DNA of 45,696 nucleotides from Klebsiella phage KP591P1: the sequence record NC_071147.1, one strand, 5' to 3'. Position numbers and translations under genes: made by a program. The notes under the pieces are model-generated. The model did no database searches, was not told where the DNA came from, and saw only the letters and a program-made list of their open reading frames with translations. Shown piece after piece: positions 8,949-45,696 of the stretch; positions within the stretch are counted from its first letter, which is position 1; each line of letters opens with the position of its first letter.

Positions 8949-8992
8949 CCATCACCTCTTTTTATTGTTAAATCAATCTACATCAAACCACG

Positions 8993-9421: not shown

Positions 9422-11393
9422 TGAAATCCTTGCGGTGGATGATATCGCGGCCTTTATCGTTAAAACGATGCGTGATGCGCTTAGGCGCGCGAATAAGGCC
9501 AGTGAACGCCATGAATGCTTTTGCGTTGTGGCAATTCATGAGGTTATCAATCAGATTCCTGTCTGATACGTGGTTTAGTAATCCTTTAATCTTAAACTGA
9601 TTTTTAAGGTACTTCTCCTGCCTGCCAAATGGATAGAACACCTCACTGGCCCAGCCATCTTTGCCGTTTTCTTTCTTGATGAAGTAACGATAAACAACGC
9701 CCTTCTCATCTTTCGTTAGCTCAATCTTGAAATCCTTGACTTCAGTCCATTCATTATCCGTATAAGCACGCTCATTGAGCGCCGCGTTAGGGTCGCGCAA
9801 AACGTGATCGCATTGACGGCAATAACGAGCTGTCGGGTCGTTCTTTGTGCCGCAACCATCATCAAAAATACGGATGCCGTGCTTGTCGAAACCGCAGCGA
9901 ATGAAGCTGAAAAACTCTTCACAACGGCCATCTGGAGACGTTGAATCTTTACCGATGCAGCGCCTTGCATATGGGCTGTTCATAGTCTGGCATTTAGGGC
10001 ATGGCACCTGCTCTCCGCTGCGCTTGGCGCGCTGCGCTTCTGCTTCCTCAAGAATAGGGTCTTCGTACAGACCTCCAAGCTCGAACATGGTTCCGGTGAA
10101 GTCAAGGCAAAGGTGGTTTTCTTTCACCAGACCTGCGGCAATCTGGTCAGGCTTCAACAGGCGCATTGGTCGGCCAAGCAACTGTGTCAGAAGAGTCAGG
10201 GACATGATTTTTCTCAGAATGACAGACGTATCCCAATATGGGATGTTGACGCCAGTAGTGAGGCAACCGATTTGCAGCGTGTATTTTTTACGCCCGGTTG
10301 CCGCATCTTTCAGCGCTTTCCGTCTGGATTTCTGTCCCATATCCTCGGTAACAATGGAATAACTGCCTTCTGGTAAGTATTTTGCAGCCTCCTTACAGTG
10401 TTTTTTACCGGCGCAGGTAATGAGCACACCAAGCCTGTCGCGCGTAAGCTCCATGACTTTGAGCATTATTTTTTGCGTCAATGTACCCTGCTTGAGGATT
10501 TCTTCCTGCATCTCTTTTAGCTGGCTATCAGTGAAGTCCTGCACGCCGTCAACTTCACTACTGGCAAACTCATGCAGATCGTATTGCAAGCCCTCGATAT
10601 CCTGCCCGCCAAAGATGGTAGGGACAAGAAACCCAAGATCGACAAGGTATTTAGTGCTGATGTTGACGATTTCATGTTTCCAGTAAGCCCCTTTTATCGA
10701 CTCAACGCCGCGAAATGGGCTGCCGGTGTAGCCAATGACAATCACCTCATGCCCATACTTCGCTTTACAGCGCCGGTTAAGCTCGGTCATGATTATGCCG
10801 TATTGCGTTTCTGGCTTGTCGGCGAGTATATCCTGCCAATTAACCTGGTGACATTCGTCGACCAAAATATACCGCGGGGTAAAATCCGATAATGGAGATT
10901 TTATGACCTCACCATCAGGCCCATGTTTATCGAAAAGTCCATTTATTATTGTGCCTTCCGTTCCACAAATTATTGGGTATGCGGTTGATTTCCTGTTTAG
11001 GGATGCGCTAAACAAAGAATTTTTAACCTGCATGTTCCACATTTCCTCAGCATCCTGATCGGCTATTTCGCCTTGTCGCGCGATAACCATTCCATACCAG
11101 TCTAATTCTTCACCAGGCTCAAGCTCTTCTGGCCTTTTGTTCATGGCCTGAAAGCGCGCGGCAATCATGGCTATCATGATGGTCTTACCGGCGCCAACTG
11201 ACGCGGTAACATAACTTGGCTTTGGTTGCTTACCAAACTTGCGGATAACCTCCGCTGTCTTTTCATATACCAGCCACTGATAGGGGCGCGGTTCAATTTC
11301 CCCGGTATGGATGCTGGCCCGCAGCTTATCCATATCCAACTCAGCAATCATTGCATCAATTTTTTGCACTTCATCCACCTTTGTGTTGCTCAA
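9396..11393 (-). CDS. SF2 DEAD/DEAH-box DNA helicase with C-terminal Cys-rich zinc ribbons (start codon uncertain: track start is TTG at 11393)
   Basis: Walker A ASVGAGKT, DEAH-like ILVDECHQ, C-terminal CPKCQ...CRQCDH; start overlaps promoter motif. Confidence 0.7.
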   Translation of the reverse strand: MSNTKVDEVQKIDAMIAELDMDKLRASIHTGEIEPRPYQWLVYEKTAEVIRKFGKQPKPSYVTASVGAGKTIMIAMIAARFQAMNKRPEELEPGEELDWYGMVIARQGEIADQDAEEMWNMQVKNSLFSASLNRKSTAYPIICGTEGTIINGLFDKHGPDGEVIKSPLSDFTPRYILVDECHQVNWQDILADKPETQYGIIMTELNRRCKAKYGHEVIVIGYTGSPFRGVESIKGAYWKHEIVNISTKYLVDLGFLVPTIFGGQDIEGLQYDLHEFASSEVDGVQDFTDSQLKEMQEEILKQGTLTQKIMLKVMELTRDRLGVLITCAGKKHCKEAAKYLPEGSYSIVTEDMGQKSRRKALKDAATGRKKYTLQIGCLTTGVNIPYWDTSVILRKIMSLTLLTQLLGRPMRLLKPDQIAAGLVKENHLCLDFTGTMFELGGLYEDPILEEAEAQRAKRSGEQVPCPKCQTMNSPYARRCIGKDSTSPDGRCEEFFSFIRCGFDKHGIRIFDDGCGTKNDPTARYCRQCDHVLRDPNAALNERAYTDNEWTEVKDFKIELTKDEKGVVYRYFIKKENGKDGWASEVFYPFGRQEKYLKNQFKIKGLLNHVSDRNLIDNLMNCHNAKAFMAFTGLIRAPKRITHRFNDKGRDIIHRKDFIGEQIEAA

Positions 11394-11426
11394 TCTACGT
11401 CACAATAGTAGACTGAATCTACGGCA
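11392..11426. promoter_or_regulatory. two copies of conserved motif AATCTACGTCA / AATCTACGGCA (24-bp spacing) in divergent helicase/primase control region
   Basis: direct sequence match to motif family listed in findings. Confidence 0.5.
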
Positions 11427-14642: not shown

Positions 14643-14710
14643 TATCAATGACTTATGAAATTGATAACTGAAAGTGACTACTAACCAAATTTTATTTTCA
14701 CCATCATATT

Positions 14711-14739
14711 GACGTAGATTGAGCGCCATCGTATAGTTA
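14711..14739 (+). promoter_or_regulatory. rightward sigma70-like promoter TTGACG-17-TATAGT (motif TTGACGTAGATTGAG) driving early operon
   Basis: near-consensus -35/-10 with 17-bp spacer, 30 bp upstream of RBS AAAGAGGTGA. Confidence 0.6.
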
Positions 14740-20490: not shown

Positions 20491-20519
20491 AATCTACATC
20501 AACCATGAATCCACGTCAA
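20491..20519 (-). promoter_or_regulatory. leftward promoter built from two motif copies 17 bp apart (TTGACG-17-TAGATT)
   Basis: AATCTACATCA (20491) and AATCCACGTCA (20508) on plus strand. Confidence 0.45.
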
Positions 20520-20849: not shown

Positions 20850-20877
20850 AATCTACGCCATGCTAGAATCTACGTCA
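20850..20877 (-). promoter_or_regulatory. leftward promoter built from two motif copies 17 bp apart (TTGACG-17-TAGATT)
   Basis: AATCTACGCCA (20850) and AATCTACGTCA (20867). Confidence 0.45.
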
Positions 20878-26340: not shown

Positions 26341-26393
26341 TATCTACATCATCGCCCATGATTTAATCTACGTCAATAGGATTATGATAAAAT
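26341..26393. promoter_or_regulatory. divergent control region: motif copies TATCTACATCA and AATCTACGTCAA (leftward TTGACG -35) plus rightward extended -10 TATGATAAAAT
   Basis: sequence match. Confidence 0.45.
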
Positions 26394-27097: not shown

Positions 27098-27566
27098 CTG
27101 GAAGGTTGTTGCGGCTATTATCGGCGCCGCACTTCTGGCGCTGATTATCTACGGAAAGTGGGTCAATTACGGGAAGGCGAAATATAATTCTGGATATCTG
27201 GCCGCCGTAGAGGCGCAGAAGGTCAAAGACAAAGAGGCAAGCGAACAACATGAGCAAGACAAAAAGACCATCGAGCAGGAAGCGCAAGGCCGCATTGATG
27301 CCGCGCGTGCTGATGCTTCCGCTGCTGCTGCTAAGTCTGGCAGGTTGCAGCAACAGCTCGCCACAATCAGAAAGCAGCTCCTCGATTATTCCCGCACTGA
27401 GTCCATTGGCAATCCAGCCTCAAACACCGGAGTTTTGCTTGCCGACGTGCTCAGCAAATCTGTCGAAAGAAACAGACAATTGGCAGAATATGCTGACTCA
27501 GCAAGAGAAGCGGGATTGACGTGCCAGGCGCAATACAACTCTTTGCGCAATAAAAAAGCCCCGTAA
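27072..27566 (+). CDS. i-spanin (Rz-like)
   Basis: N-terminal TM, long coiled coil; embedded lipoprotein ORF. Confidence 0.65.
   Translation: MILQILKANWKVVAAIIGAALLALIIYGKWVNYGKAKYNSGYLAAVEAQKVKDKEASEQHEQDKKTIEQEAQGRIDAARADASAAAAKSGRLQQQLATIRKQLLDYSRTESIGNPASNTGVLLADVLSKSVERNRQLAEYADSAREAGLTCQAQYNSLRNKKAP
27298..27519 (+). CDS. o-spanin (Rz1-like lipoprotein) embedded in +1 frame of Rz
   Basis: MPRVLMLPLLLLSLAGC lipobox LAGC. Confidence 0.6.
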   Translation: MPRVLMLPLLLLSLAGCSNSSPQSESSSSIIPALSPLAIQPQTPEFCLPTCSANLSKETDNWQNMLTQQEKRD

Positions 27567-27580
27567 AGGGGCTTTGCTTG
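27556..27580. terminator. bidirectional rho-independent terminator
   Basis: AAAAAA GCCCC GTAAA GGGGC TTTGCTT. Confidence 0.7.
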
Positions 27581-28765: not shown

Positions 28766-28783
28766 CTTGACGAATCTACGTCA
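28766..28783. promoter_or_regulatory. 18-bp palindrome TTGACGAATCTACGTCAA containing the conserved motif; divergent promoter/operator
   Basis: perfect inverted repeat TTGACG/CGTCAA around AATCTA. Confidence 0.45.
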
Positions 28784-28832
28784 ATTAGTCAATACTCTGT
28801 GTTGTAGATTATAACATCTTAATGCGAGTGAT

Positions 28833-33515: not shown

Positions 33516-34604
33516 ATGGAAAAGATTATCTTTACGAAAGGCTTAATCACCAACTCGCAGGTGGTTAAAGAGCAATGGCGCCACCTGACTGTTGACCGCA
33601 AGGTTTTCATCAATGGTGAAAACGCTCTGGCGAAAGAATACGGCGTGAACGCCACCGCACTGGTAACGAAAGACTACTGGCGCGAAGTGGATGACGTGAC
33701 CACCCGTGTATTCCGCAACGAGTCAGGTATGGACATGATGGCCGACCTGATGACGCTGGCGACCAACATCAACATCGGTAAGACCGTGGCAATTAGCCGC
33801 ATGGCCTCCGATGCTGGCAAGGTTGTGCGCACCATCTCCGGGCAGGAGCCTGAAGACCTGGATAAAACCCGCTATTCCTACAGCGGAGATGTAATCCCGA
33901 TCTTCAAAACCGGTTATGGCCGCGAGTGGCGCGAGCTGATGGGTATGCAGTCTGAAGGTTTCGACCCGCTGATTGATGACCAGGAAAGCACCACCTTCAA
34001 CCTGCGCGCAGACATGGCTGATTATCTGCTGGTCGGCGACGCAAGCCTGAACGTGAATGGCGTTTATACCGCCTACGGCATCACCAACCACCCTAACACC
34101 GTGCAGCTTAACCTGAGTGCCTCTGGTACTGGCGCGCTGAACATCGACCTGCAAACTGCAACCCCTGATGAAATCGTTGAGTTCTTCAACCAGGATTTCC
34201 AGGCGGTTCTCGATGCGCAAAACGTGTTCGAGCCGGTTACTCTGTGGGTTTCTCCGTCTGTGCGTCGCTCCTTCAGCCGTCCGTACTCCAACGCGGCAGG
34301 CTTCAAAGGCGGCACCATTGAGGATTATATCCTCGCATTCGGAAAAACCGGCAACGTTGGCCGCATCGCGTCTATCGGCACCAACTTCAAGCTGACCGGG
34401 AACCATTTCGTCGGCTATGTGAAGAATGCACTGTATATTCGCCCTCGCGTCGCTCAGCCGGTATCTACCTATGCAGAGCCGCGTACCACGCCGCATGCTA
34501 ACTTTAACTTCCTGACCTGGGCTGCTATGGGCCTGCAAATCCGTAAGGATTTCAATGGTCGAAGCAAAGTTTTCAACGGCTACGGCACGCAAACCGCGCT
34601 GTAA
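33516..34604 (+). CDS. major capsid protein
   Basis: 362 aa; follows scaffold-like genes; strong terminator hairpin directly downstream. Confidence 0.6.
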   Translation: MEKIIFTKGLITNSQVVKEQWRHLTVDRKVFINGENALAKEYGVNATALVTKDYWREVDDVTTRVFRNESGMDMMADLMTLATNINIGKTVAISRMASDAGKVVRTISGQEPEDLDKTRYSYSGDVIPIFKTGYGREWRELMGMQSEGFDPLIDDQESTTFNLRADMADYLLVGDASLNVNGVYTAYGITNHPNTVQLNLSASGTGALNIDLQTATPDEIVEFFNQDFQAVLDAQNVFEPVTLWVSPSVRRSFSRPYSNAAGFKGGTIEDYILAFGKTGNVGRIASIGTNFKLTGNHFVGYVKNALYIRPRVAQPVSTYAEPRTTPHANFNFLTWAAMGLQIRKDFNGRSKVFNGYGTQTAL

Positions 34605-34870: not shown

Positions 34871-34883
34871 ATTGGGGGTTATC

Positions 34884-35702
34884 ATGGCTGTCAGGTACGA
34901 AATAAACACAACTCCGGCTGACGGAGAGGTTTTGCTTAGCGAAACCATGTCAGCAGACTGGACTGCATTGCAGGTGCAGATTGTGCCATTAAACTCTTCC
35001 GGAGGTCATGCACCATTAACAAGCGGCTCTGTTTCCGTAATGGTATCGCCGTTTGCATCTGGTGACTTCTGGATTGACGTCAACAATAATAATTATTATG
35101 GCGTGGCGCTGCGACTGAAAGTGATCAAGTCACAACTCCCTGCTGGCGTTGCGTCCCTGAAAGTCCTGGTATGGCGAGCTGACACCTCAGTGCCATCAAG
35201 TCAGGTTGTCGCTCAGTCCTACTCGGAGCTTGCCAACAAGCAAGGTAAGTTATTCACAGCATCGCGTCGCGTGACTGATGTTGCTGGCGGGGCTAATCTT
35301 GACAGCATTTTTATTACCGGCTCAAAACAGGTCGTGTTCAATCAGCGCATCATTGGCTACACTGGGAAAGGTGTCGTAGCGTCAATCTACCGTGGAGCCG
35401 TAGCCACTGGCGGCACCGCTGCCGAGATTAATAACCCAAATGACATAGCACCGCATACTGCAACGGCGCAGCTTCTTACTGGCTCTACAGTTACAAGTAT
35501 CGGTCAGCTGACGGTGGCTGCAACGTATAGTGAAGGGAACGCATCTAATCAGGGGCAGGGCAATTCTCAGGCAAAACTTGGTGAGCAGGTCATCATGGCC
35601 CCTAATACTACCTACCTGTTACACATCACATCGCTGGATACTGCGGCGCAAAACATCAATGCTTACGTTTCGTGGTTTGAGGATGACGCTTATCTTCCGT
35701 GA
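34884..35702 (+). CDS. putative virion structural protein (272 aa)
   Basis: TIR GGGGTTATCATGGCT identical to previous gene; track start 34872 is TTG. Confidence 0.4.
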   Translation: MAVRYEINTTPADGEVLLSETMSADWTALQVQIVPLNSSGGHAPLTSGSVSVMVSPFASGDFWIDVNNNNYYGVALRLKVIKSQLPAGVASLKVLVWRADTSVPSSQVVAQSYSELANKQGKLFTASRRVTDVAGGANLDSIFITGSKQVVFNQRIIGYTGKGVVASIYRGAVATGGTAAEINNPNDIAPHTATAQLLTGSTVTSIGQLTVAATYSEGNASNQGQGNSQAKLGEQVIMAPNTTYLLHITSLDTAAQNINAYVSWFEDDAYLP

Positions 35703-35704
35703 CA

Positions 35705-35735
35705 AAAGAAAAGCCCCAGAAGGGGCTTTGTTTAC
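35705..35735. terminator. bidirectional rho-independent terminator
   Basis: AAAAGAAA AGCCCC AGAA GGGGCT TTGTTT. Confidence 0.7.
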
Positions 35736-35983
35736 TTATGGTCGCGAAGTTGAATGAGATTATCAATCAGCCTCTGAATTGAGGCGTTGTCTTTGAATGT
35801 GATATAAATTTCCGCCTCATCAATATCATCAACTTCATCGCCCGGCACCCCTCGATTTGTGCTATTCGCAATAGCTATTAACTTTTCACCATGGAAAGAG
35901 CCAAATTTAATGCCAACGTAACCATAACCAAGACTGGCAACTTTTGAGCCGTCCTTCTGAGTAAAAACGCCATTCTTTTTCAT
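35732..35983 (-). CDS. hypothetical protein (83 aa; internal start with RBS GAGGA)
   Basis: MKKNGVFTQKDGSKVASLGYGY... Confidence 0.35.
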   Translation of the reverse strand: MKKNGVFTQKDGSKVASLGYGYVGIKFGSFHGEKLIAIANSTNRGVPGDEVDDIDEAEIYITFKDNASIQRLIDNLIQLRDHK

Positions 35984-36005
35984 CACTAAATCCTCGTTGG
36001 CATAA

Positions 36006-36182
36006 CTGTTATTTTTTGTTCTTGATGTAATGCTGCTTTGCGATATACAGCATCTCATCAAATGATTTTCCGGTAACGCTTCGGCATTGTCGAAAGTGCT
36101 GCAATGCGGCCTCTATGGCCGCGTTGTCGATGCCTGGCAGTTTTTCGCGCAGGTTTTTCTCTATGAATTGTTCGGTGTTCAT
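36006..36182 (-). CDS. hypothetical small protein (58 aa)
   Basis: ATGA overlap with upstream gene; not in ORF track. Confidence 0.3.
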
Positions 36183-36439
36183 CTTTGCCGCCTAAATGAA
36201 ATATTACCACCACCTATTGCAACATAACGGAATTTTCCGCAACCTTTTTTAACCCTGCACTTTCTGTATCTGTAGCGTCGAATTTCATGGTATGCCTTTT
36301 CTGTTAAAAGGAATGTAAATCCTTTATCAATGGCGCCAGCAACCTCAATAACAGCTTTAGACATTTGATCAATAATGTCTTTAGTGCTCATCGAAGACCA
36401 ATCCACGCTATGACCACTATTTATTAACCCTTTCATCAC
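36179..36439 (-). CDS. hypothetical protein with basic Cys-containing C-terminus (86 aa)
   Basis: ATGA overlap with ParB-like gene. Confidence 0.4.
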   Translation of the reverse strand: MMKGLINSGHSVDWSSMSTKDIIDQMSKAVIEVAGAIDKGFTFLLTEKAYHEIRRYRYRKCRVKKGCGKFRYVAIGGGNISFRRQR

Positions 36440-37251
36440 AACTTCTCCAGAATCGCCAGCACTTCATTCAACTCCGCAGAAGGAAGGCGCAAAAATTCTT
36501 CTGTTTCCTGTGCCACGTGCCCCTCAGCAACAACCATGTGATCTGCTTCTTTCAGCAACTGAATCAGGCGGTCAATCGGCTTAACTTTTTTGGCCTTGAG
36601 CGTTTTCGCCGTCACCTTATCCTTGCCCTGCGATTTCGCTTCCTCAACGGCAGCATCAATAACGTTAACGGCATCATCGCCATGCTCGCGCGCCACCGCA
36701 ACGGCGTTGGCATAGCTGATTTGGCCTGCATTGATGCGTTGCTTGATAGCATCAGGTACATCACCAAGTGACAGGTGCATCTGCACATCAGAAACCGAGC
36801 GGCCTACTTTTTTGGCGATTTCTTCATTCGTCCATCCGAACCCTTTGAGGCGCACATAAGCCTTTGCACGCTCAAGCGGGTCAAGCTGTTTGCCCTGACT
36901 GGATGACACCATGAAGGCGATTTTATCCGCTTCATCGCCGGTGAAGTCTTTGCACTCAATGCGCGCAATTGGCACGCCGCGCTCAATGGCACGCAGTGCG
37001 CCAAGATAACGATGCTGGCCGTCAAGAATCTTGATGCGCTTTCCGTCGGCATCAGGAATAACAGTTAACGCTGGGATTGGCTGTCCTGATTCCCAGCACT
37101 GCGCGAAGTATTCAACGTGCTGATCATCGGCTTCGCGGATGTTGTAGCCTGGCTCAAGGTAAAGCTGATCGACAGGAACCTGATAACCTTTGTTGACCAC
37201 GATTCCGCCGCGAGTTTCTTTGTCTGAGTAAATTTTTCCGAGAGATGTCAT
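36436..37251 (-). CDS. ParB/Srx-like nuclease-domain DNA-binding protein
   Basis: KILDGQHRYLGA (ParB box), HTH EEIAKKVGRSVSDVQMHL; RBS GAGGAAAAG before ATG 37251. Confidence 0.6.
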   Translation of the reverse strand: MTSLGKIYSDKETRGGIVVNKGYQVPVDQLYLEPGYNIREADDQHVEYFAQCWESGQPIPALTVIPDADGKRIKILDGQHRYLGALRAIERGVPIARIECKDFTGDEADKIAFMVSSSQGKQLDPLERAKAYVRLKGFGWTNEEIAKKVGRSVSDVQMHLSLGDVPDAIKQRINAGQISYANAVAVAREHGDDAVNVIDAAVEEAKSQGKDKVTAKTLKAKKVKPIDRLIQLLKEADHMVVAEGHVAQETEEFLRLPSAELNEVLAILEKL

Positions 37252-37258
37252 CTTTTCC

Positions 37259-37375
37259 TCACTTTGATAAACAGATTGCGCTGGCAATGGCAAATCCGAT
37301 AACGATTAATGTCAGCTTGATTTTGAAATTGCGCCATGCCTTCAGGTCTTCTTTGCGGATTTCGTGGCGGATCAT
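37259..37375 (-). CDS. small membrane peptide (38 aa)
   Basis: RBS GGAGAA; ...KIKLTLIVIGFAIASAICL; ATGA overlap. Confidence 0.3.
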   Translation of the reverse strand: MIRHEIRKEDLKAWRNFKIKLTLIVIGFAIASAICLSK

Positions 37376-37692
37376 TTTGATTCTCCGAGTGCTTTGGTGA
37401 TGGCGGAATCTATCTTTTTTTTAAGGTCTGGTTTCTGTTGTGATAACCAATGCCCTATTTCATCGAGTGTTGTAGTCAACGCTTCCAGAAGTTCCGGAGC
37501 GGCAGCGATGAGACGTGCATTTGCGCGAGTTTCGTCGGCTTCACGATGATGAACACCGTCATAATCCGGGGACAAAACGTTTGCAACTTTGAATCGTCCG
37601 CCCAATCGTGTTCCGCGAATTCGAATATATGGTCTGTCAACTTCTTCCGGTTTAATTTCCCACGGACCCGGCGTACCTTTGAACTTATTCAT
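37372..37692 (-). CDS. phage protein with conserved PGPW ... ANARLIAAAPELLEAL motif (Ead/Ea22-like)
   Basis: RBS AGAGG 8 nt before ATG 37692; motif seen in many enterobacterial prophage proteins. Confidence 0.4.
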   Translation of the reverse strand: MNKFKGTPGPWEIKPEEVDRPYIRIRGTRLGGRFKVANVLSPDYDGVHHREADETRANARLIAAAPELLEALTTTLDEIGHWLSQQKPDLKKKIDSAITKALGESK

Positions 37693-37719: not shown

Positions 37720-37777
37720 TTTCTACGTCATCACTATAACGACACCCTCAATCTACGTCAACACTTTATGATAAAAT
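37720..37777. promoter_or_regulatory. divergent control region: leftward TTGACG-17-TATAGT promoter (motif TTGACGTAGATTGAG), extra motif copy TTCTACGTCA, rightward extended -10 TATGATAAAAT
   Basis: rc 37756-37761 TTGACG, rc 37733-37738 TATAGT, 17-bp spacer. Confidence 0.55.
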
Positions 37778-39046: not shown

Positions 39047-39514
39047 ATGGCCGCCAAAATGCGAGGTATCCAGCAGGCGATTAAGCGCACTCAGCAGATA
39101 GTCGGCGAGATTACTGGTGAAAAGGCTGTGCGGGCCATAAAGAGCGCCAACTTTATTATCCGTACTGAAGCAGCCAGCATGACGCCTGTTGATACATCCA
39201 ATCTCATAAACAGTCAATATGATACTGTTGAGGTGAATGGCACCCGTATAACCGGGAAGATAGGGTATACAGCAAAATACGCCCTGTACGTACACAATGC
39301 GCCAGGCACGCTAAAGGGACAGCCTCGCGCCCACTTTGGCAAGACAAGTAACCGCTCTGAATTCGGGCCGCAGCAGGTCAGGGAGTTTGGTGGTGGCTCA
39401 TTACAGGGAAACTATTGGGACCCGAGCGGCGAGCCTAAATTCCTTCTCAAGGCTGGCGAAAATACACGCGAGCTTGTCGAACAGGTAATCAAAAAAGAGA
39501 TGACACTAAAATGA
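39047..39514 (+). CDS. putative head-tail joining / virion morphogenesis protein (HK97 gp10-like position)
   Basis: 155 aa, coupled to neighbours. Confidence 0.35.
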   Translation: MAAKMRGIQQAIKRTQQIVGEITGEKAVRAIKSANFIIRTEAASMTPVDTSNLINSQYDTVEVNGTRITGKIGYTAKYALYVHNAPGTLKGQPRAHFGKTSNRSEFGPQQVREFGGGSLQGNYWDPSGEPKFLLKAGENTRELVEQVIKKEMTLK

Positions 39515-39894: not shown

Positions 39895-39971
39895 TGGTTC
39901 CCGCGACAGGATTCGAACCTGTAATCATCCGATTATGAGTCGGGTGCTTTAACCAGTTAAGCTAAACGGTA
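39895..39971 (-). tRNA. tRNA with anticodon CAU (Met or Ile2/lysidine type); imperfect acceptor stem, possibly pseudo
   Basis: D-arm GCTT-AACTGGTTA-AAGC, anticodon loop CTCATAA, T-arm ACAGG-TTCGAAT-CCTGT, CCA encoded; acceptor pairs only 5/7. Confidence 0.5.
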
Positions 39972-39974
39972 ATT

Positions 39975-40051
39975 TGGTGCACCATACTGGATTCGAACCA
40001 GTAACCGATTGCTTAGAAGGCAATTGCTCTATCCTGATGAGCTAGTGGTGC
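39975..40051 (-). tRNA. tRNA-Arg (anticodon UCU)
   Basis: acceptor GCACCAC/ATGGTGC, D-arm GCTC...GAGC, anticodon stem ATTGC/GCAAT loop CTTCTAA, T-arm ACTGG-TTCGAAT-CCAGT, CCA encoded. Confidence 0.85.
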
Positions 40052-40057
40052 TGAATG

Positions 40058-40145
40058 TGGCGGATAGTACAGGATTCGAACCTGTGAACCGTTTCCGGTT
40101 TATCGGTTAGCAACCGACTGCTTTCGGCCTCTCAGCCAACTATCC
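40058..40145 (-). tRNA. tRNA-Ser (anticodon GCU), class II with long variable arm
   Basis: acceptor GGATAGT/ACTATCC, D-arm GCT-GAGAGGCCGAA-AGC, anticodon loop TTGCTAA, variable arm AAACCGGAAACGGTTC, T-arm ACAGG-TTCGAAT-CCTGT, G-CCA. Confidence 0.85.
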
Positions 40146-40558: not shown

Positions 40559-40598
40559 AATCTACACCACCAATCAAAACCTGTCAACATGATATAAT
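40559..40598. promoter_or_regulatory. divergent promoters: leftward TTGACA-17-TAGATT (drives tRNA cluster) sharing CTGTCAA with rightward extended -10 TGaTATAAT (drives major tail gene)
   Basis: motif variant AATCTACACCA 40559-40569; CTGTCAA 40581-40587; TATAAT 40593-40598. Confidence 0.5.
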
Positions 40599-40632: not shown

Positions 40633-41388
40633 ATGGCTATTTGTGCAAATGATAACGGCATCATCACAGGTCGCCAGTCGCTCATCGAGCTGGCTGATGG
40701 CTGCTGGGATGCTGTGCCAGCAGAGGAAGACTGGAAGTTTTTTGCTCCCATGACCTCAAAAGGCGTCGACTTCAGCCCAAGCACTACCACTTCTGAGGCT
40801 GATGATGGCGATGGCTTTGTCGCAACGCTGGTCACTACCGCAGACCTCACCATTTCTGGTGATTTCGAAGTTCGCAAGGCCGACAAGGCTGATGAGTATG
40901 GCGTGCATAACCTCATCAAATACTTTGTCACCGAAGTAAAAGCGCGTCGCCAGCCGTCACTGTGGGTTCGCCAGACCACCGGAAATACCGTTGTCGTGGC
41001 CTACTGCAACATCACCGCGCTGAGCTATGATGGCGGCACCAACGACATCATCACCGGCTCGGTTGAATTTAAGCCGTATGATGGCTCTACCGTTGACGTG
41101 TCCAGCATCGAAGATTTGACGCTGACCACTGATATCAGTGCAACCAAAAGCGTTGCCACTGGCGCTACTCTGACGCTAGGTCCGGTAGTTGCGGCTGGCG
41201 GTGTAGAGCCTTATACCTATCAGTGGTATAAAGGCACCACGCCGATCAGCGGTGCTACTACCGACACGTTCACCAAGGCCACTGCCGCCGCAGGTGATGC
41301 TGGTACGTACTTCTGCCGCGTGACTGACTCGGCAACAAGTCCTGATTACGTTGACTCCACCAAGTGTGTTGTTACCGTTACGGCATAA
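40633..41388 (+). CDS. major tail protein with C-terminal Ig-like (Big_2-type) domain
   Basis: YTYQWYKGTTPISGATTDTF...AGDAGTYFCRVTDS Ig-like signature; followed by strong terminator. Confidence 0.7.
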   Translation: MAICANDNGIITGRQSLIELADGCWDAVPAEEDWKFFAPMTSKGVDFSPSTTTSEADDGDGFVATLVTTADLTISGDFEVRKADKADEYGVHNLIKYFVTEVKARRQPSLWVRQTTGNTVVVAYCNITALSYDGGTNDIITGSVEFKPYDGSTVDVSSIEDLTLTTDISATKSVATGATLTLGPVVAAGGVEPYTYQWYKGTTPISGATTDTFTKATAAAGDAGTYFCRVTDSATSPDYVDSTKCVVTVTA

Positions 41389-41390
41389 AG

Positions 41391-41418
41391 AAAACCCCCG
41401 AAAGGGGGTTTATTTTTT
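41391..41418. terminator. bidirectional rho-independent terminator
   Basis: AAAGAAAA CCCCC GAAA GGGGG TTTATTTTTT. Confidence 0.75.
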
Positions 41419-42155: not shown

Positions 42156-42183
42156 GTGAACACCCTCCGTTTCGATAACTCAA

Positions 42184-42222
42184 TCTACGTCAGTTTTGCG
42201 CCCCCTGTCAATGGTATAATTA
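42184..42222. promoter_or_regulatory. divergent promoters: leftward TTGACA-18-TAGATT (motif AATCTACGTCA supplies -10) and rightward extended -10 TGgTATAAT
   Basis: same CTGTCAA-N-TATAAT layout as 40581-40598. Confidence 0.5.
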
Positions 42223-42956: not shown

Positions 42957-45696
42957 TGGCAGAAGAAGTTGGCGGCATTGTCTATGAGGTTGGCATGGAG
43001 GTCTCGGGCCTCACTGCTGGCGCTAAACAGGCAGAGGATGCACTTGACAGCATCGACAAGTCAGCGCAGAACTCATCAAAAAGTATGGATAAGCTGGATG
43101 GTGCGGCATCATCATCTGGTAAAGAGCTTTCAGCTCTGGCAAAAATTGTAAGCTCCATTGATGCAACGCTGAAGGATATGGCCTCATCGTCGAAGACTGC
43201 CGCCAGCTCAGTAGAGGCTACAACCTCCAGTGTCACCGGTGCCGAGCAGGTTATTGCAGCCCTAAACCAACAGCTCGCACAGATGCAGCAGGCGCAGGTG
43301 TCCGCGAACGCAACCGGCCTTGCACTTCAAAACTCAGTCAATCAGGTCACTCAGGCAATTCGTGCGCTTGGCGCTCAGTCAACTGAAACAGGTGGCTCAA
43401 TCTCTGGCATTGACAGAATGATTGAGAGTCTTGGAAACCAGATCGCAATCCTCGACGAACAAGCGGAAAAAGGCGCAAGAAGTGCGGCGATACTGGCTGC
43501 GCAGCTTCGTGCAGGAGATAGCGCCACTGATGCGCAGAAAGCAAAAATAGCTGAGCTTACTGGCCGTCTGTATGACATGAAAAACAGCACCGAGGTGGCT
43601 GGGAAATCAACTGGTAATTTTAAGAACGCTTTACAGCAAAGTGGCTATCAGATTCAGGACTTTGTCGTACAGGTTCAGGGCGGACAATCGGCACTAGTGG
43701 CGCTAAGCCAGCAAGGTTCTCAGCTAATCAGCGTTTTTGGGGCCGGAGGCGCAATAGCTGGCGCATTATTGACTGTGAGCACAGTTATTGCTGGTTCATT
43801 AATAGCATCTTTGGGTAACGGTAAAAATGCCATTGACGCCCTGAAAGAAGCCATAGCGACCATGGATAGCGTCGTGTCGGTTTCATCTTCTGGTGTCGCT
43901 GTCTATACCGACAAATTCGCACGGCTTGCAAAAGTCAATTCAGAGGTAGCTACCCTAATGCGCCAACAGGCGCAGCTTGAGTTACAGGCAGCCCTGTCTA
44001 AAGTATCAGCGGAAGTCACAAAGGCATCAAGTGACTTTATCGGATTTGGCGATTCGCTTGTTTCATCGCTTGGTGGTGGCTATGCCAGCGTGAAACTTTT
44101 CAATGACTACATGTCGCAGCTTAATATCACAACGAATAGCTGGACGGAAGCCATTAAACAAGCGTCAGCAGCAGGTCAGGCCGGTCAGACGTCAATGAAT
44201 GGCATGATTGCCACGGTAGGCGCGTTAGCTGGTAAATTCCAGCTCTCCGACCAGCAGGCCTTCGAATTTGCAAAACAGCTTTCTGATATTGCAAAAAACC
44301 CATCTGATGAGAAGCTAAAGGCACTTATTTCCACTCTGCAAAGAGTCGGCGAGGGAACATCCAGCGGTGCGGCAACGGCGCGGGAGTATGCAAACAGACT
44401 GCTTGAGATTGCAACCAGCAGCGCTGATGCGTCACTGCGTCTTAAGCTGCTGAGGCAAATGACGGATGAGTTAACTGACTCTCAGGATAAAGCGTTGCAG
44501 CAGGCAAGGCAGACGCTTTTCATCGAGCGCCAGACTGGCGTAGAGAAACAGAAGGCGCTCGCATGGCGTGATGCTGAGAATCAGGGGCTAAAAGCCGGGA
44601 CTCAGGCATTTCGTGACTATTACAATGTTCGCCTACAAACCTATCAGCAACAGGAGAAAAATGCACAAGCCCTGAAGGATGAGCGTAGCGCGCAAAGTGC
44701 AGCAAACTCAGAGGCAAAAAAAGCAGCCACAGAGCAGGAGAATATCGCCAATAAACTTGAGCAGCTTCGCCAGAAGTCACTGCTTACCGCTGAAAGCACA
44801 AGAGAGCTTAGCCGTGAACAGTCAATACTGGCTGCTCAGCAATCCCTTGGCAAGGGAGCTACTCAGGAGCAAATTAACCTTGCCGGGCAATATGCGGCTA
44901 AGGCATGGGATAATGCCAACGCGCTCAAGGCTCAGGCGGAGGCAGAGAAGCAAAGGGTCGAAGCTGTCAAGGGATTCGCTGCATTAAAATCGCAGACATC
45001 CCCAATGTTTGCTGTTGAAACAAATTATCAGAAAGATTTAGCAGCGCTCAATGCTTACGCAGTAGCCTACCCGCAAAAGATAGCGGAGGTTGAGCAGGCC
45101 AGAGCAGCTATTGAGGAACAATACCGCCAGCAGCGCCTTGATGCCATGTGGCAGGAGTGGAGCCAGCAGAATGCGGCCACACAAGCGGCCGCTGCTGCAT
45201 TTGATGCTTTCGGGCAAACCGCAAGCAACGCCTTGACTGGTGTTCTTACTGGCTCAATGTCTGTTAGCGAGGCTCTACAGTCAATAGGGAGCAATGTGTT
45301 AAATGCGGTTATTAACTCTTTCGTTCAGATGGGTGTGGAGTGGCTTAAATCGGTGATCATGGGACAGGCAGGAATGGCAGCAGCATCTGCCGCAACCGCC
45401 GCTCAGGCAGCAGGAATAGCAGCGGCTATGGCGCCAGCGGCAGCGATGACATCACTTGCTACTGGCGGTGCTAACGCAGTACCTGCACAGGCTGGTATTG
45501 CTTCCACTGTTGGCGTAGCTAAAGCAATGTCTGTTGCTGGAGCATTGAAAAATGGTGGCCCTGCGCAGGCTGGCTCAATGTATCAGGTCGGTGAGAATAA
45601 CCTCCCTGAAATCTTCCAGGCCAGCACAGGTAAGCAGTATATGATTCCCGGAGATTCAGGTAAGGTTATCAGCAACAAAGACCTTACCGGCGGTGG
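42956..45696 (+). CDS. tail tape measure protein (N-terminal 913 codons; ORF continues through window end into nt 1-242)
   Basis: ATG 42956 overlaps upstream TAA; long Ala/Gln-rich coiled-coil with no stop to window end; ~975 aa total. Confidence 0.75.
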   Translation, partial: MAEEVGGIVYEVGMEVSGLTAGAKQAEDALDSIDKSAQNSSKSMDKLDGAASSSGKELSALAKIVSSIDATLKDMASSSKTAASSVEATTSSVTGAEQVIAALNQQLAQMQQAQVSANATGLALQNSVNQVTQAIRALGAQSTETGGSISGIDRMIESLGNQIAILDEQAEKGARSAAILAAQLRAGDSATDAQKAKIAELTGRLYDMKNSTEVAGKSTGNFKNALQQSGYQIQDFVVQVQGGQSALVALSQQGSQLISVFGAGGAIAGALLTVSTVIAGSLIASLGNGKNAIDALKEAIATMDSVVSVSSSGVAVYTDKFARLAKVNSEVATLMRQQAQLELQAALSKVSAEVTKASSDFIGFGDSLVSSLGGGYASVKLFNDYMSQLNITTNSWTEAIKQASAAGQAGQTSMNGMIATVGALAGKFQLSDQQAFEFAKQLSDIAKNPSDEKLKALISTLQRVGEGTSSGAATAREYANRLLEIATSSADASLRLKLLRQMTDELTDSQDKALQQARQTLFIERQTGVEKQKALAWRDAENQGLKAGTQAFRDYYNVRLQTYQQQEKNAQALKDERSAQSAANSEAKKAATEQENIANKLEQLRQKSLLTAESTRELSREQSILAAQQSLGKGATQEQINLAGQYAAKAWDNANALKAQAEAEKQRVEAVKGFAALKSQTSPMFAVETNYQKDLAALNAYAVAYPQKIAEVEQARAAIEEQYRQQRLDAMWQEWSQQNAATQAAAAAFDAFGQTASNALTGVLTGSMSVSEALQSIGSNVLNAVINSFVQMGVEWLKSVIMGQAGMAAASAATAAQAAGIAAAMAPAAAMTSLATGGANAVPAQAGIASTVGVAKAMSVAGALKNGGPAQAGSMYQVGENNLPEIFQASTGKQYMIPGDSGKVISNKDLTGG

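Follow-up and report, generated by a model that had tools for sequence, protein, structure and literature searches.

The genome of Klebsiella phage KP591P1 (NC_071147.1; the whole 45,696-nucleotide stretch analyzed here is referred to as the window) harbors a leftward operon of six genes, g1 to g6, between its capsid and neck genes, and the third gene, g3, encodes an orphan member of the ParB family. The ParB/Srx fold with a helix-turn-helix (HTH) that a preliminary description, made from the sequence alone, had assigned to g3 was borne out by Pfam, by a structure model, and by Foldseek. The nucleotide pocket of g3 was found to be altered but strictly conserved within its family, and a promoter box present twice ahead of the operon was found to recur at promoters elsewhere in the genome. 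Of the readings weighed here, the most likely is that g3 binds phage DNA site-specifically as a regulator or organizer, comparable to KorB or VirB, and this is put forward tentatively.

Fold and Nucleotide Pocket of the ParB-Like Protein

Residues 122–204 of g3 matched the Pfam model HTH_ParB (PF17762) at 43.7 bits (cut-off 22.6), and the protein also matched the Pfam KorB model at 28.3 bits (cut-off 22.3) and phrog_1033, named "ParB-like partition protein," at 3e-86. No match to Pfam PF02195 was obtained at E <= 1. The NCBIfam model TIGR00180 (parB_part) scored 43.2 bits, under its cut-off of 58.45, and the Noc model TIGR04285 also remained under its cut-off; TIGR03187 (DGQHR/DndB-like) gave 18 bits against a cut-off of 58.85 and covered residues 61–106 only. 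The closest solved relative by sequence was Spo0J (1vz0; 2e-11, and 1.8e-15 with the family profile), and further solved relatives were Bacillus subtilis ParB (6sdk), Myxococcus ParB, Noc (7nfu), and KorB.

The AlphaFold2 (AF2) model of g3, built from 23 family members, had a predicted local distance difference test (pLDDT) score of 85. A Foldseek search of the PDB with this model returned Caulobacter ParB (6t1f; E 7.6e-9, template modeling (TM) score 0.74) and KorB (8qa9; E 1.2e-8, TM 0.70), followed by Noc and Spo0J, with sulfiredoxin at E 8e-3. Beyond the HTH, the model contains a long helix and then a helix–strand–strand–helix domain (residues 225–270), an order of elements that we take to be that of the canonical ParB dimerization domain. 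The C-domain fold of KorB is SH3-like and differs from that of g3.

The nucleotide-binding boxes were compared by residue alignment with CDP- and CTP-bound (cytidine di- and triphosphate) ParBs. Box II, GERRFRA in 6sdk, aligned to G78-Q-H-R81-Y-L-G84 of g3, with G78 and R81 kept and with Glu replaced by Gln or His, Arg by His, Arg by Leu, and Ala by Gly. Box III, the ENxxR motif of Mg/CTP binding and hydrolysis, was not found in g3, ENLQR being replaced by S116-S-S-Q119-G120. In the alignment of 23 members, the pocket residues N37 and R39 (both of Box I), D77, G78, H80, R81, S117, S118, Q119, and G120 were invariant down to 42% identity, as were R151, S152, D155, H159, L160, and L162 of the recognition helix. 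Since the substitute residues are themselves invariant, the pocket of g3 is under selection and yet is non-canonical as a CTPase pocket. A survey of ParB folds reported that they bind CTP, ATP, or GTP, and that some bind none (PMC12704722).

Organization of the Operon

The anatomy of the operon was as first described, namely, six tightly packed open reading frames (ORFs) on the minus strand (37692–35732) bracketed by a promoter and a bidirectional terminator. The features and the genes that flank them are as follows:

37733..37761, minus strand: sigma-70-type promoter TTGACG-17-TATAGT, 10/12 consensus matches
37372..37692, minus strand: g1, 106 aa; PF27050/phrog_1273, related to P22 Orf78
37259..37375, minus strand: g2, 38-aa peptide with one predicted membrane helix
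36436..37251, minus strand: g3, 271 aa; orphan ParB-family protein with ParB/Srx-fold N-domain, HTH, and alpha-beta-beta-alpha C-domain
36179..36439, minus strand: g4, 86 aa (85 aa with the ATG at 36436 as start); basic orphan
36009..36182, minus strand: g5, 57 aa; phrog_4439
35732..35983, minus strand: g6, 83 aa; orphan limited to this phage group
35710..35729, both strands: bidirectional intrinsic terminator hairpin, 8 bp with 5 GC pairs and T-rich tails on either side
34872–35702, plus strand: 276-aa rightward gene (phrog_5335), adjoining the capsid gene
33516–34604: major capsid protein gene, upstream flank of the operon
39047–39514: Neck1/tail-completion protein gene, downstream flank of the operon

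Stop and start codons overlap at g1/g2 (ATGA), g3/g4 (GTGATG), and g4/g5 (ATGA). The g2/g3 gap of 7 nt contains the Shine–Dalgarno sequence GAGGAAAAG and the g5/g6 gap of 23 nt contains the Shine–Dalgarno sequence GAGGA. The 85-aa form of g4 agrees with its homologue P0243. The "three small basic proteins" of the preliminary description were partly upheld, as g4 and g5 are basic (isoelectric points of 10.2 and 9.25) and g6 is not (6.05).

Taken by itself, the operon promoter does not exceed what chance would give in the region (4 sites found against 5.1 expected); the promoter and the leader are, however, kept in the phages VLCpiS13d, Akira, and S192, which include relatives of other genera. 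The terminator is common to the operon and the converging 276-aa gene; its predicted folding energy is -13.8 kcal/mol for the minus strand (z -3.55) and, for the plus strand, -16.1 kcal/mol (z -3.2). Three near-identical bidirectional hairpins of the AAAAGCCCC...GGGGCTTT type end transcription units in the window, at 27552–27579, 35706–35733, and 41388–41415. The operon does interrupt the rightward structural genes between capsid and neck, as noted previously. Leftward units interrupt rightward genes at several other places in the genome, so that the interruption is a general feature of its architecture and not peculiar to this spot.

A Promoter Box Family

Two copies of a box lie ahead of the operon, and related sites are spread over the window:

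37750..37760, minus strand: Box 1, TGACGTAGATT, fused to the -35 hexamer of the operon promoter
37720..37730, minus strand: Box 2, TGACGTAGAAA, at the predicted transcription start
8975–8985, 11392–11426, 14710–14720, 20491–20518, and 20850–20877: TGA(C/T)GTAGATT or GTAGATT box sites
26341–26375, 28773–28810, 37720–37760, 40559–40565, and 42182–42192: further sites of the same kind

In the window as well as in Akira, the 11-mer TGACGTAGATT topped the over-represented words; with at most one mismatch it occurs at 12 sites in the genome against ~0.7 expected, by our own estimate with equal base frequencies. The 9-mer TGACGTAGA occurs at 18 sites with at most one mismatch (5.6 expected), and the core GTAGATT at 16 sites (2.7 expected), 13 of them in promoter positions. 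Box promoters head the helicase unit, the exonuclease/recombinase/single-stranded DNA-binding protein (SSB) unit, the tRNA cluster, and five small units read leftward, of which the operon is one. Nearly all leftward non-structural units are marked by a box; one rightward unit, starting at 14710, has a box promoter as well. Akira, VLCpiS13d, and three distant relatives have kept the box family, which is missing from unrelated phages. Box 2 is kept in VLCpiS13d, Akira, and S192 and is not found in the more distant locus L015.

The boxes are placed in two ways. Some promoters use TAGATT as their -10 element (TTGACA/G-17/18-TAGATT); in others, that of the operon included, the whole box is fused to the -35 element as TTGACGTAGATT and a second box lies at the -10 element or the transcription start. 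The TAGATT of the boxes fused to -35 has no sigma-70 role. A relative with a solitary ParB-like gene (67% identical, with the same recognition helix) carries three GTAGAT boxes in the 71 bp before the start codon, two of which form the inverted repeat GGTAGATATTAATCTACC and the third of which abuts the ATG; elsewhere in this relative, GTAGATTAAA-N12-TTTAATCTAC flanks a -10 element. Owing to these positions, the boxes look like operators of a clade-specific DNA-binding protein.

Genomes whose ParB-like protein has the helix RSVSD(V/I)xxHLSL are box-rich, and those with another helix (Escherichia phage ECO1230-10 and two lambdoid-type metagenomic contigs) are not, a correlation that is confounded by phylogeny and by how the loci were collected. 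A link between the protein and the boxes is accordingly a lead of low probability. The top over-represented word of ECO1230-10 is a different one, TGGGACTATCT, with 5–6 copies against ~0.05 expected. VLCpiS13d, which has lost most of its ParB-like gene, was considered as a test of whether the boxes depend on the protein and gave no information, since its deletion is a recent one and every box is still in place.

Distribution and Neighborhood of the ParB-Like Gene

In a large protein database, 81 homologues of g3 were found at E <= 1e-5, down to 44% identity. The ParB-like gene was present at >=60% identity in 192 phage records, against 199 records with the clade capsid protein at >=60%, and the same head-to-neck slot is occupied in Salmonella phage Akira (Akiravirus) and Escherichia coli phage S192 (Deseoctovirus). 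From these counts and the shared slot in other genera, the ParB-like gene ranks almost as a core gene in the clade. The term "accessory," applied earlier to the whole operon, hence fits the small ORFs (g4 found in 3 phages, g6 in ~8, with low guanine + cytosine (GC) content) and not the nearly universal ParB-like gene.

The genes around it vary. Across relatives, the first gene of the operon is a g1-like gene, EaC, or a 50-codon ORF, and the ParB-like gene is followed by a RusA-like resolvase, endonuclease VII, cytosine or adenine methylases, or small orphans. The GC content of g4–g6 (35732–36439) is 41–43%, against values given as 50–54% or 50–57% for g3 and the flanking backbone, which agree with each other in composition; the low GC of g4–g6 is consistent with recent acquisition. 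The common hairpins and promoter boxes may act as recombination linkers for the exchange of such cargo.

A natural deletion was found in Klebsiella phage VLCpiS13d as deposited (locus L003, 14977–15230), which lacks ~2.1 kb corresponding to ~35058–37176 of the window. The deletion takes out g4–g6 and leaves the 276-aa rightward gene fused, at its codon 62, to the ParB-like gene at codon 25. Since the isolate is viable without most of the ParB-like gene and g4–g6, the block is dispensable for propagation; the fusion likewise indicates that the 276-aa protein is dispensable and probably no essential virion component.

More distant homologues (44–47% identity) were found in other settings. In one lambdoid-type metagenomic contig the gene lies between cro/cII-like genes and the replication genes O/DnaB, and in a second contig its neighbors are Rad52, exonuclease, CsrA, SSB, and Dam genes, with a CI-type repressor nearby. 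In the unrelated Escherichia myophage ECO1230-10 (Jilinvirus; L010) the homologue, of 44% identity, is annotated as a putative transcriptional regulator and stands at the end of an extended series of tail genes. Among plasmids, the closest relatives of g3 (~31%) are orphan ParB-like genes beside ssb or a methyltransferase, and the plasmids in question carry a separate locus for partition.

The Other Genes of the Operon

The protein g1 had been described as Ead/Ea22-like, which did not hold: the family profile gave 2.6 bits against P22 EaD and -0.7 bits against lambda Ea22, the same profile gave 22.9 bits against P22 Orf78, and there was no NCBIfam match. The homologues of g1, including the identical protein P0082, all carry PF27050 (Phage_P22_Y8K6), a membership read from the annotation of the homologues as the local Pfam copy lacks this model; g1 belongs to phrog_1273. 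Klebsiella phage KP591P3 encodes a protein of the very same sequence (100% identity), and the family has 857 members at E <= 1e-3. P22 Orf78 is encoded in an early phage operon, as g1 appears to be, namely the PL operon, between ral and gene 17. It shares with g1 the C-terminal helical hairpin AAPELLEAL...AAIxKALG and lacks the conserved N-terminal TPGPW...YIRIRGT module of g1.

The layout of g1 comprises 72 very conserved N-terminal residues, a segment of ~25 residues that is hypervariable in length and sequence (residues 73–96), and a conserved tail, A..AI.KALGE. Over its N-terminal 58 aa, g1 shares 95% identity with a protein of the unrelated Klebsiella myophages KpV52, FZ14, and KB2, which indicates recombination inside the gene. 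The AF2 model of g1 (pLDDT 70) showed a beta hairpin and a helical hairpin, and no structural match in the PDB was better than E 1.8. A g1-like gene immediately precedes the ParB-like gene in the distant relatives L015 and L019 (ParB identity 55% and 51%), an adjacency that hints at a functional link.

The hydrophobic stretch of g2 is LTLIVIGFAIASAICL, and the 38-codon ORF is retained in four relatives with 66–95% amino-acid identity. For g4, a clade-restricted orphan that occurs in 3 distinct phages, an exhaustive HMMER search yielded 6 representative clusters among 1.84 billion proteins; remote homology was rejected, the two long matches having spurious Pfam hits only. The gene g5 recurs downstream of the ParB-like gene in Akira, S192, and the distant locus L015. 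The protein g6, found in ~8 distinct phages, has 41 homologues, 40 of which are >=76% identical over the full length, on contigs up to ~51 kb; no Pfam domain was found among them. A PADLOC search with all six operon proteins gave no defense-related match.

Genome Setting

Bases 1–55 of the window are repeated exactly at 45642–45696, and this terminal duplication shows the window to be an entire, circularly permuted genome of ~45,641 bp whose assembly overlaps at the ends. It is 88–95% identical, in a mosaic manner, to the Klebsiella siphophages vB_Kpn_F14, MK54, and SCNJ1-C as well as to Flyfo siphovirus Tbat1_6, Vibrio phage pYD38-A, and Aeromonas phage pIS4-A. The window is the genome of a lytic, Roufvirus-like Klebsiella siphophage. 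A subfamily "Roufvirinae" has been proposed for this group, one member of which was strictly lytic in experiments and lacks an integrase (PMC11769527), which agrees with the virulent-phage setting assumed in the preliminary description. The literature found on the group consists of genome announcements and therapy papers in which the ParB-like protein and the promoters are not treated.

An Rfam scan of the window returned three tRNAs and nothing else. The tRNA genes (Met-CAT, Arg-TCT, and Ser-GCT; 39895–40145, minus strand) are clustered in leftward orientation, with the neck genes on one side and the major tail gene on the other, apparently under a box-type promoter, TTGACA-17-TAGATT, at ~40587–40559.

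Comparison With Known ParB-Family Proteins

Orphan ParB-family regulators have precedents on mobile elements in KorB (PMC11790492), VirB (PMC10770331), BisD (PMC12409273), and HerB (PMC13370423). KorB of plasmid RK2, a global repressor that acts as a CTP-dependent sliding clamp, is like g3 a mobile-element protein with a ParB N-domain and an HTH, and a short motif recurs at many promoters of the phage. Unlike g3, KorB has canonical CTP motifs, a 13-bp palindromic operator, the partners KorA and TrbA, and the ParA-type IncC; in g3, Box III is replaced, and neither a palindromic operator nor a ParA-type partner was found. In both sequence and structure, g3 is matched best by chromosomal ParB/Spo0J and Noc, which share its domain order and the order of secondary-structure elements in the C-domain. 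They differ from g3 in the presence of ParA, of the ParA-activating motif, and of parS or Noc-binding (NBS) palindromes, and in the pocket, where GERRxRA is changed to GQHRYLG and ENLQR to SSSQG in g3.

HerB (YfjB) and Shigella VirB resemble g3 as orphan ParB-like proteins with an HTH, carried on mobile elements, expressed at entry or early, and without a role in partition. HerB differs in its 652 aa, its extra domains D3/D4, and its canonical CTP pocket (PMC13370423); VirB differs in being CTP-dependent and in binding an inverted repeat. Membership of g3 in the HerB family was rejected, as YfjB of the F plasmid gave a BLASTP E of 0.18 and an hhalign probability of 71% over the N-domain and HTH only. 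The CTP-independent ParT of the Streptomyces plasmid SCP2 resembles g3 as a ParB-like DNA binder with degenerate nucleotide motifs; unlike g3, it works with ParA in plasmid partition (PMC12260392).

What the ParB-Like Protein May Do

The earlier statement that function is not directly readable from the sequence was upheld, and several readings were therefore weighed. The one that we favor, with some reserve, is site-specific binding of phage DNA by g3 as a regulator or organizer. In the mechanism proposed, the operon would be a transcription unit of the early, non-structural class, read by the host RNA polymerase and placed in the conserved head–neck slot. The orphan ParB-family protein is its stable core, set in a hot spot where the surrounding small genes are swapped by recombination. 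The protein would act as a dimer whose HTH contacts specific sites on the phage's own DNA, the remodeled N-terminal nucleotide pocket would control its self-association, and g3 would, unlike a partition protein, regulate or organize early replication and accessory promoters. The anatomy of the operon, the fold of g3, its conservation across the clade, the lack of a ParA partner, and the place of the promoter in a shared family are shown by the analysis, whereas we only infer dimerization, the sites contacted on DNA, expression early in infection, a dependence on nucleotide, and the outcome for regulation.

The operon is co-classed with replication and accessory genes, and not with structural genes, because its promoter shares TGA(C/T)GTAGATT with the helicase and exonuclease/recombinase/SSB promoters, and it is this co-classing that leads us to call it early. 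The early class is also favored by the homologues in temperate relatives, which sit among early replication and recombination genes. A stronger form of the proposal, in which g3 is a master regulator, is rather doubtful. The helix RSVSDVxxHLSL would then bind the GTAGATT or TGA(C/T)GTAGATT boxes at about a dozen early promoters, its own included. The boxes occur in both direct and inverted arrangement, a freedom that P1 ParB also allows in its box A heptamers, and switching would proceed via the pocket, no longer that of a canonical CTPase. The protein would thereby act, within a strictly lytic family, as a global silencer or activator of the KorB kind, possibly together with the PF27050 protein that repeatedly precedes it.

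Four points weigh against a regulatory role. The over-represented box, which is the candidate site, is non-palindromic and mostly readable as promoter elements. A CTP-gated clamp mechanism cannot be assumed for g3. VLCpiS13d has lost the ParB-like gene from codon 26 on together with g4–g6, yet it keeps every box and is viable, so that any regulation by the ParB-like protein is dispensable in the laboratory. Lastly, the cargo beside the ParB-like gene in relatives (RusA-like resolvase, endonuclease VII, and DNA methylases) would fit a helper of DNA processing equally well.

Binding of g3 to sites on the host chromosome early in infection, by which host transcription or the nucleoid would be altered in the manner of HerB or Noc, is unlikely, although three observations speak for it. 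HerB/YfjB, an orphan ParB-like protein of the leading regions of conjugative plasmids, binds sites on the chromosome and reprograms host transcription (PMC13370423); the plasmid genes closest to g3 are the orphans beside ssb or a DNA methyltransferase mentioned above; and the recognition helix is invariant across Klebsiella, Salmonella, and Escherichia phages, which would fit a conserved host site. However, the kinship of g3 and HerB is remote (BLASTP E 0.18; hhalign probability 71%), and g3 lacks the HerB D3/D4 domains (271 aa vs. 652 aa).

The helper role just mentioned, in which g3 would load on DNA and recruit or activate a neighboring methyltransferase or a RusA-like or endonuclease VII resolvase, is judged to be quite unlikely. 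In relatives, the gene lies directly upstream of DNA methylases (BUCT541, VLCpiS13e, KlebP_265, and S192), of RusA-like resolvases (Tbat1_6, Akira, and ZC2), or of endonuclease VII. ParB folds of phages are often fused to methyltransferases (PMC12704722), and a phage ParB activates its cognate thymine dioxygenase on double-stranded DNA without a need for its nucleoside triphosphate (NTP) residues (PMC13229309). None of these enzymes, however, is encoded in the KP591P1 operon, where g4–g6 are small orphans, and the enzyme partner changes from phage to phage while the ParB-like protein is constant.

A function in anti-defense or as a nuclease is improbable. The ParB/Srx domain would in that case be catalytic or would shield phage DNA, with g1 as a second counter-defense factor. 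The operon does lie in a cargo hot spot with a gene set dispensable in one isolate, g1 is strongly conserved but for its hypervariable segment of ~25 aa, and the P22 relative of g1, Orf78, is encoded next to ral. Nevertheless, PADLOC gave no matches and no nuclease motif was identified, the architecture of HTH and dimerization-type domain suggests site-specific binding over catalysis, and the near-universal conservation of g3 is unusual for counter-defense cargo.

The absence of a ParA partner, claimed in the preliminary description, was confirmed, as no deviant Walker A motif (KGGxxK[ST]) was present in any frame of the window and none was annotated in relatives. The ParA-activating motif LG[KR]GL was sought at the N-terminus of g3, where MTSLGKIY does not fit and positions 5–6 vary within the family. 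The proposed search for parS-like inverted repeats was carried out exhaustively over the whole genome (arms of 6–8 bp, gaps of 0–4, with an additional repeat search) and gave no recurrent palindrome family. A true partition (centromere-binding) protein, left from or serving a plasmid-like state, is thus effectively refuted despite the database names ("ParB-like partition protein" in phrog_1033 and RefSeq annotations), given the lack of ParA, LG[KR]GL, and a repeated palindrome in the window, the sub-threshold TIGR00180 score, and the lytic relative with no integrase reported.

Significance

Related phages already have annotations for the ParB-like family, and surveys of orphan phage ParBs exist; if g3 is a minor DNA-binding accessory, the finding is an ordinary one. 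Orphan ParB-family proteins are common on phages and plasmids, and few of them (KorB, VirB, BisD, HerB, and Noc) have a known job. The protein g3 is a compact version of 271 aa that is near-universal in Klebsiella, Salmonella, and E. coli phages considered as therapeutic candidates, and for phage therapy the annotation "partition protein" is no sign of a plasmid or lysogenic lifestyle. An altered but strictly conserved pocket, a natural deletion mutant, and a candidate regulon of box promoters together make a clean experimental system, with which the role of the ParB fold in lytic phages and its need for CTP can be addressed.

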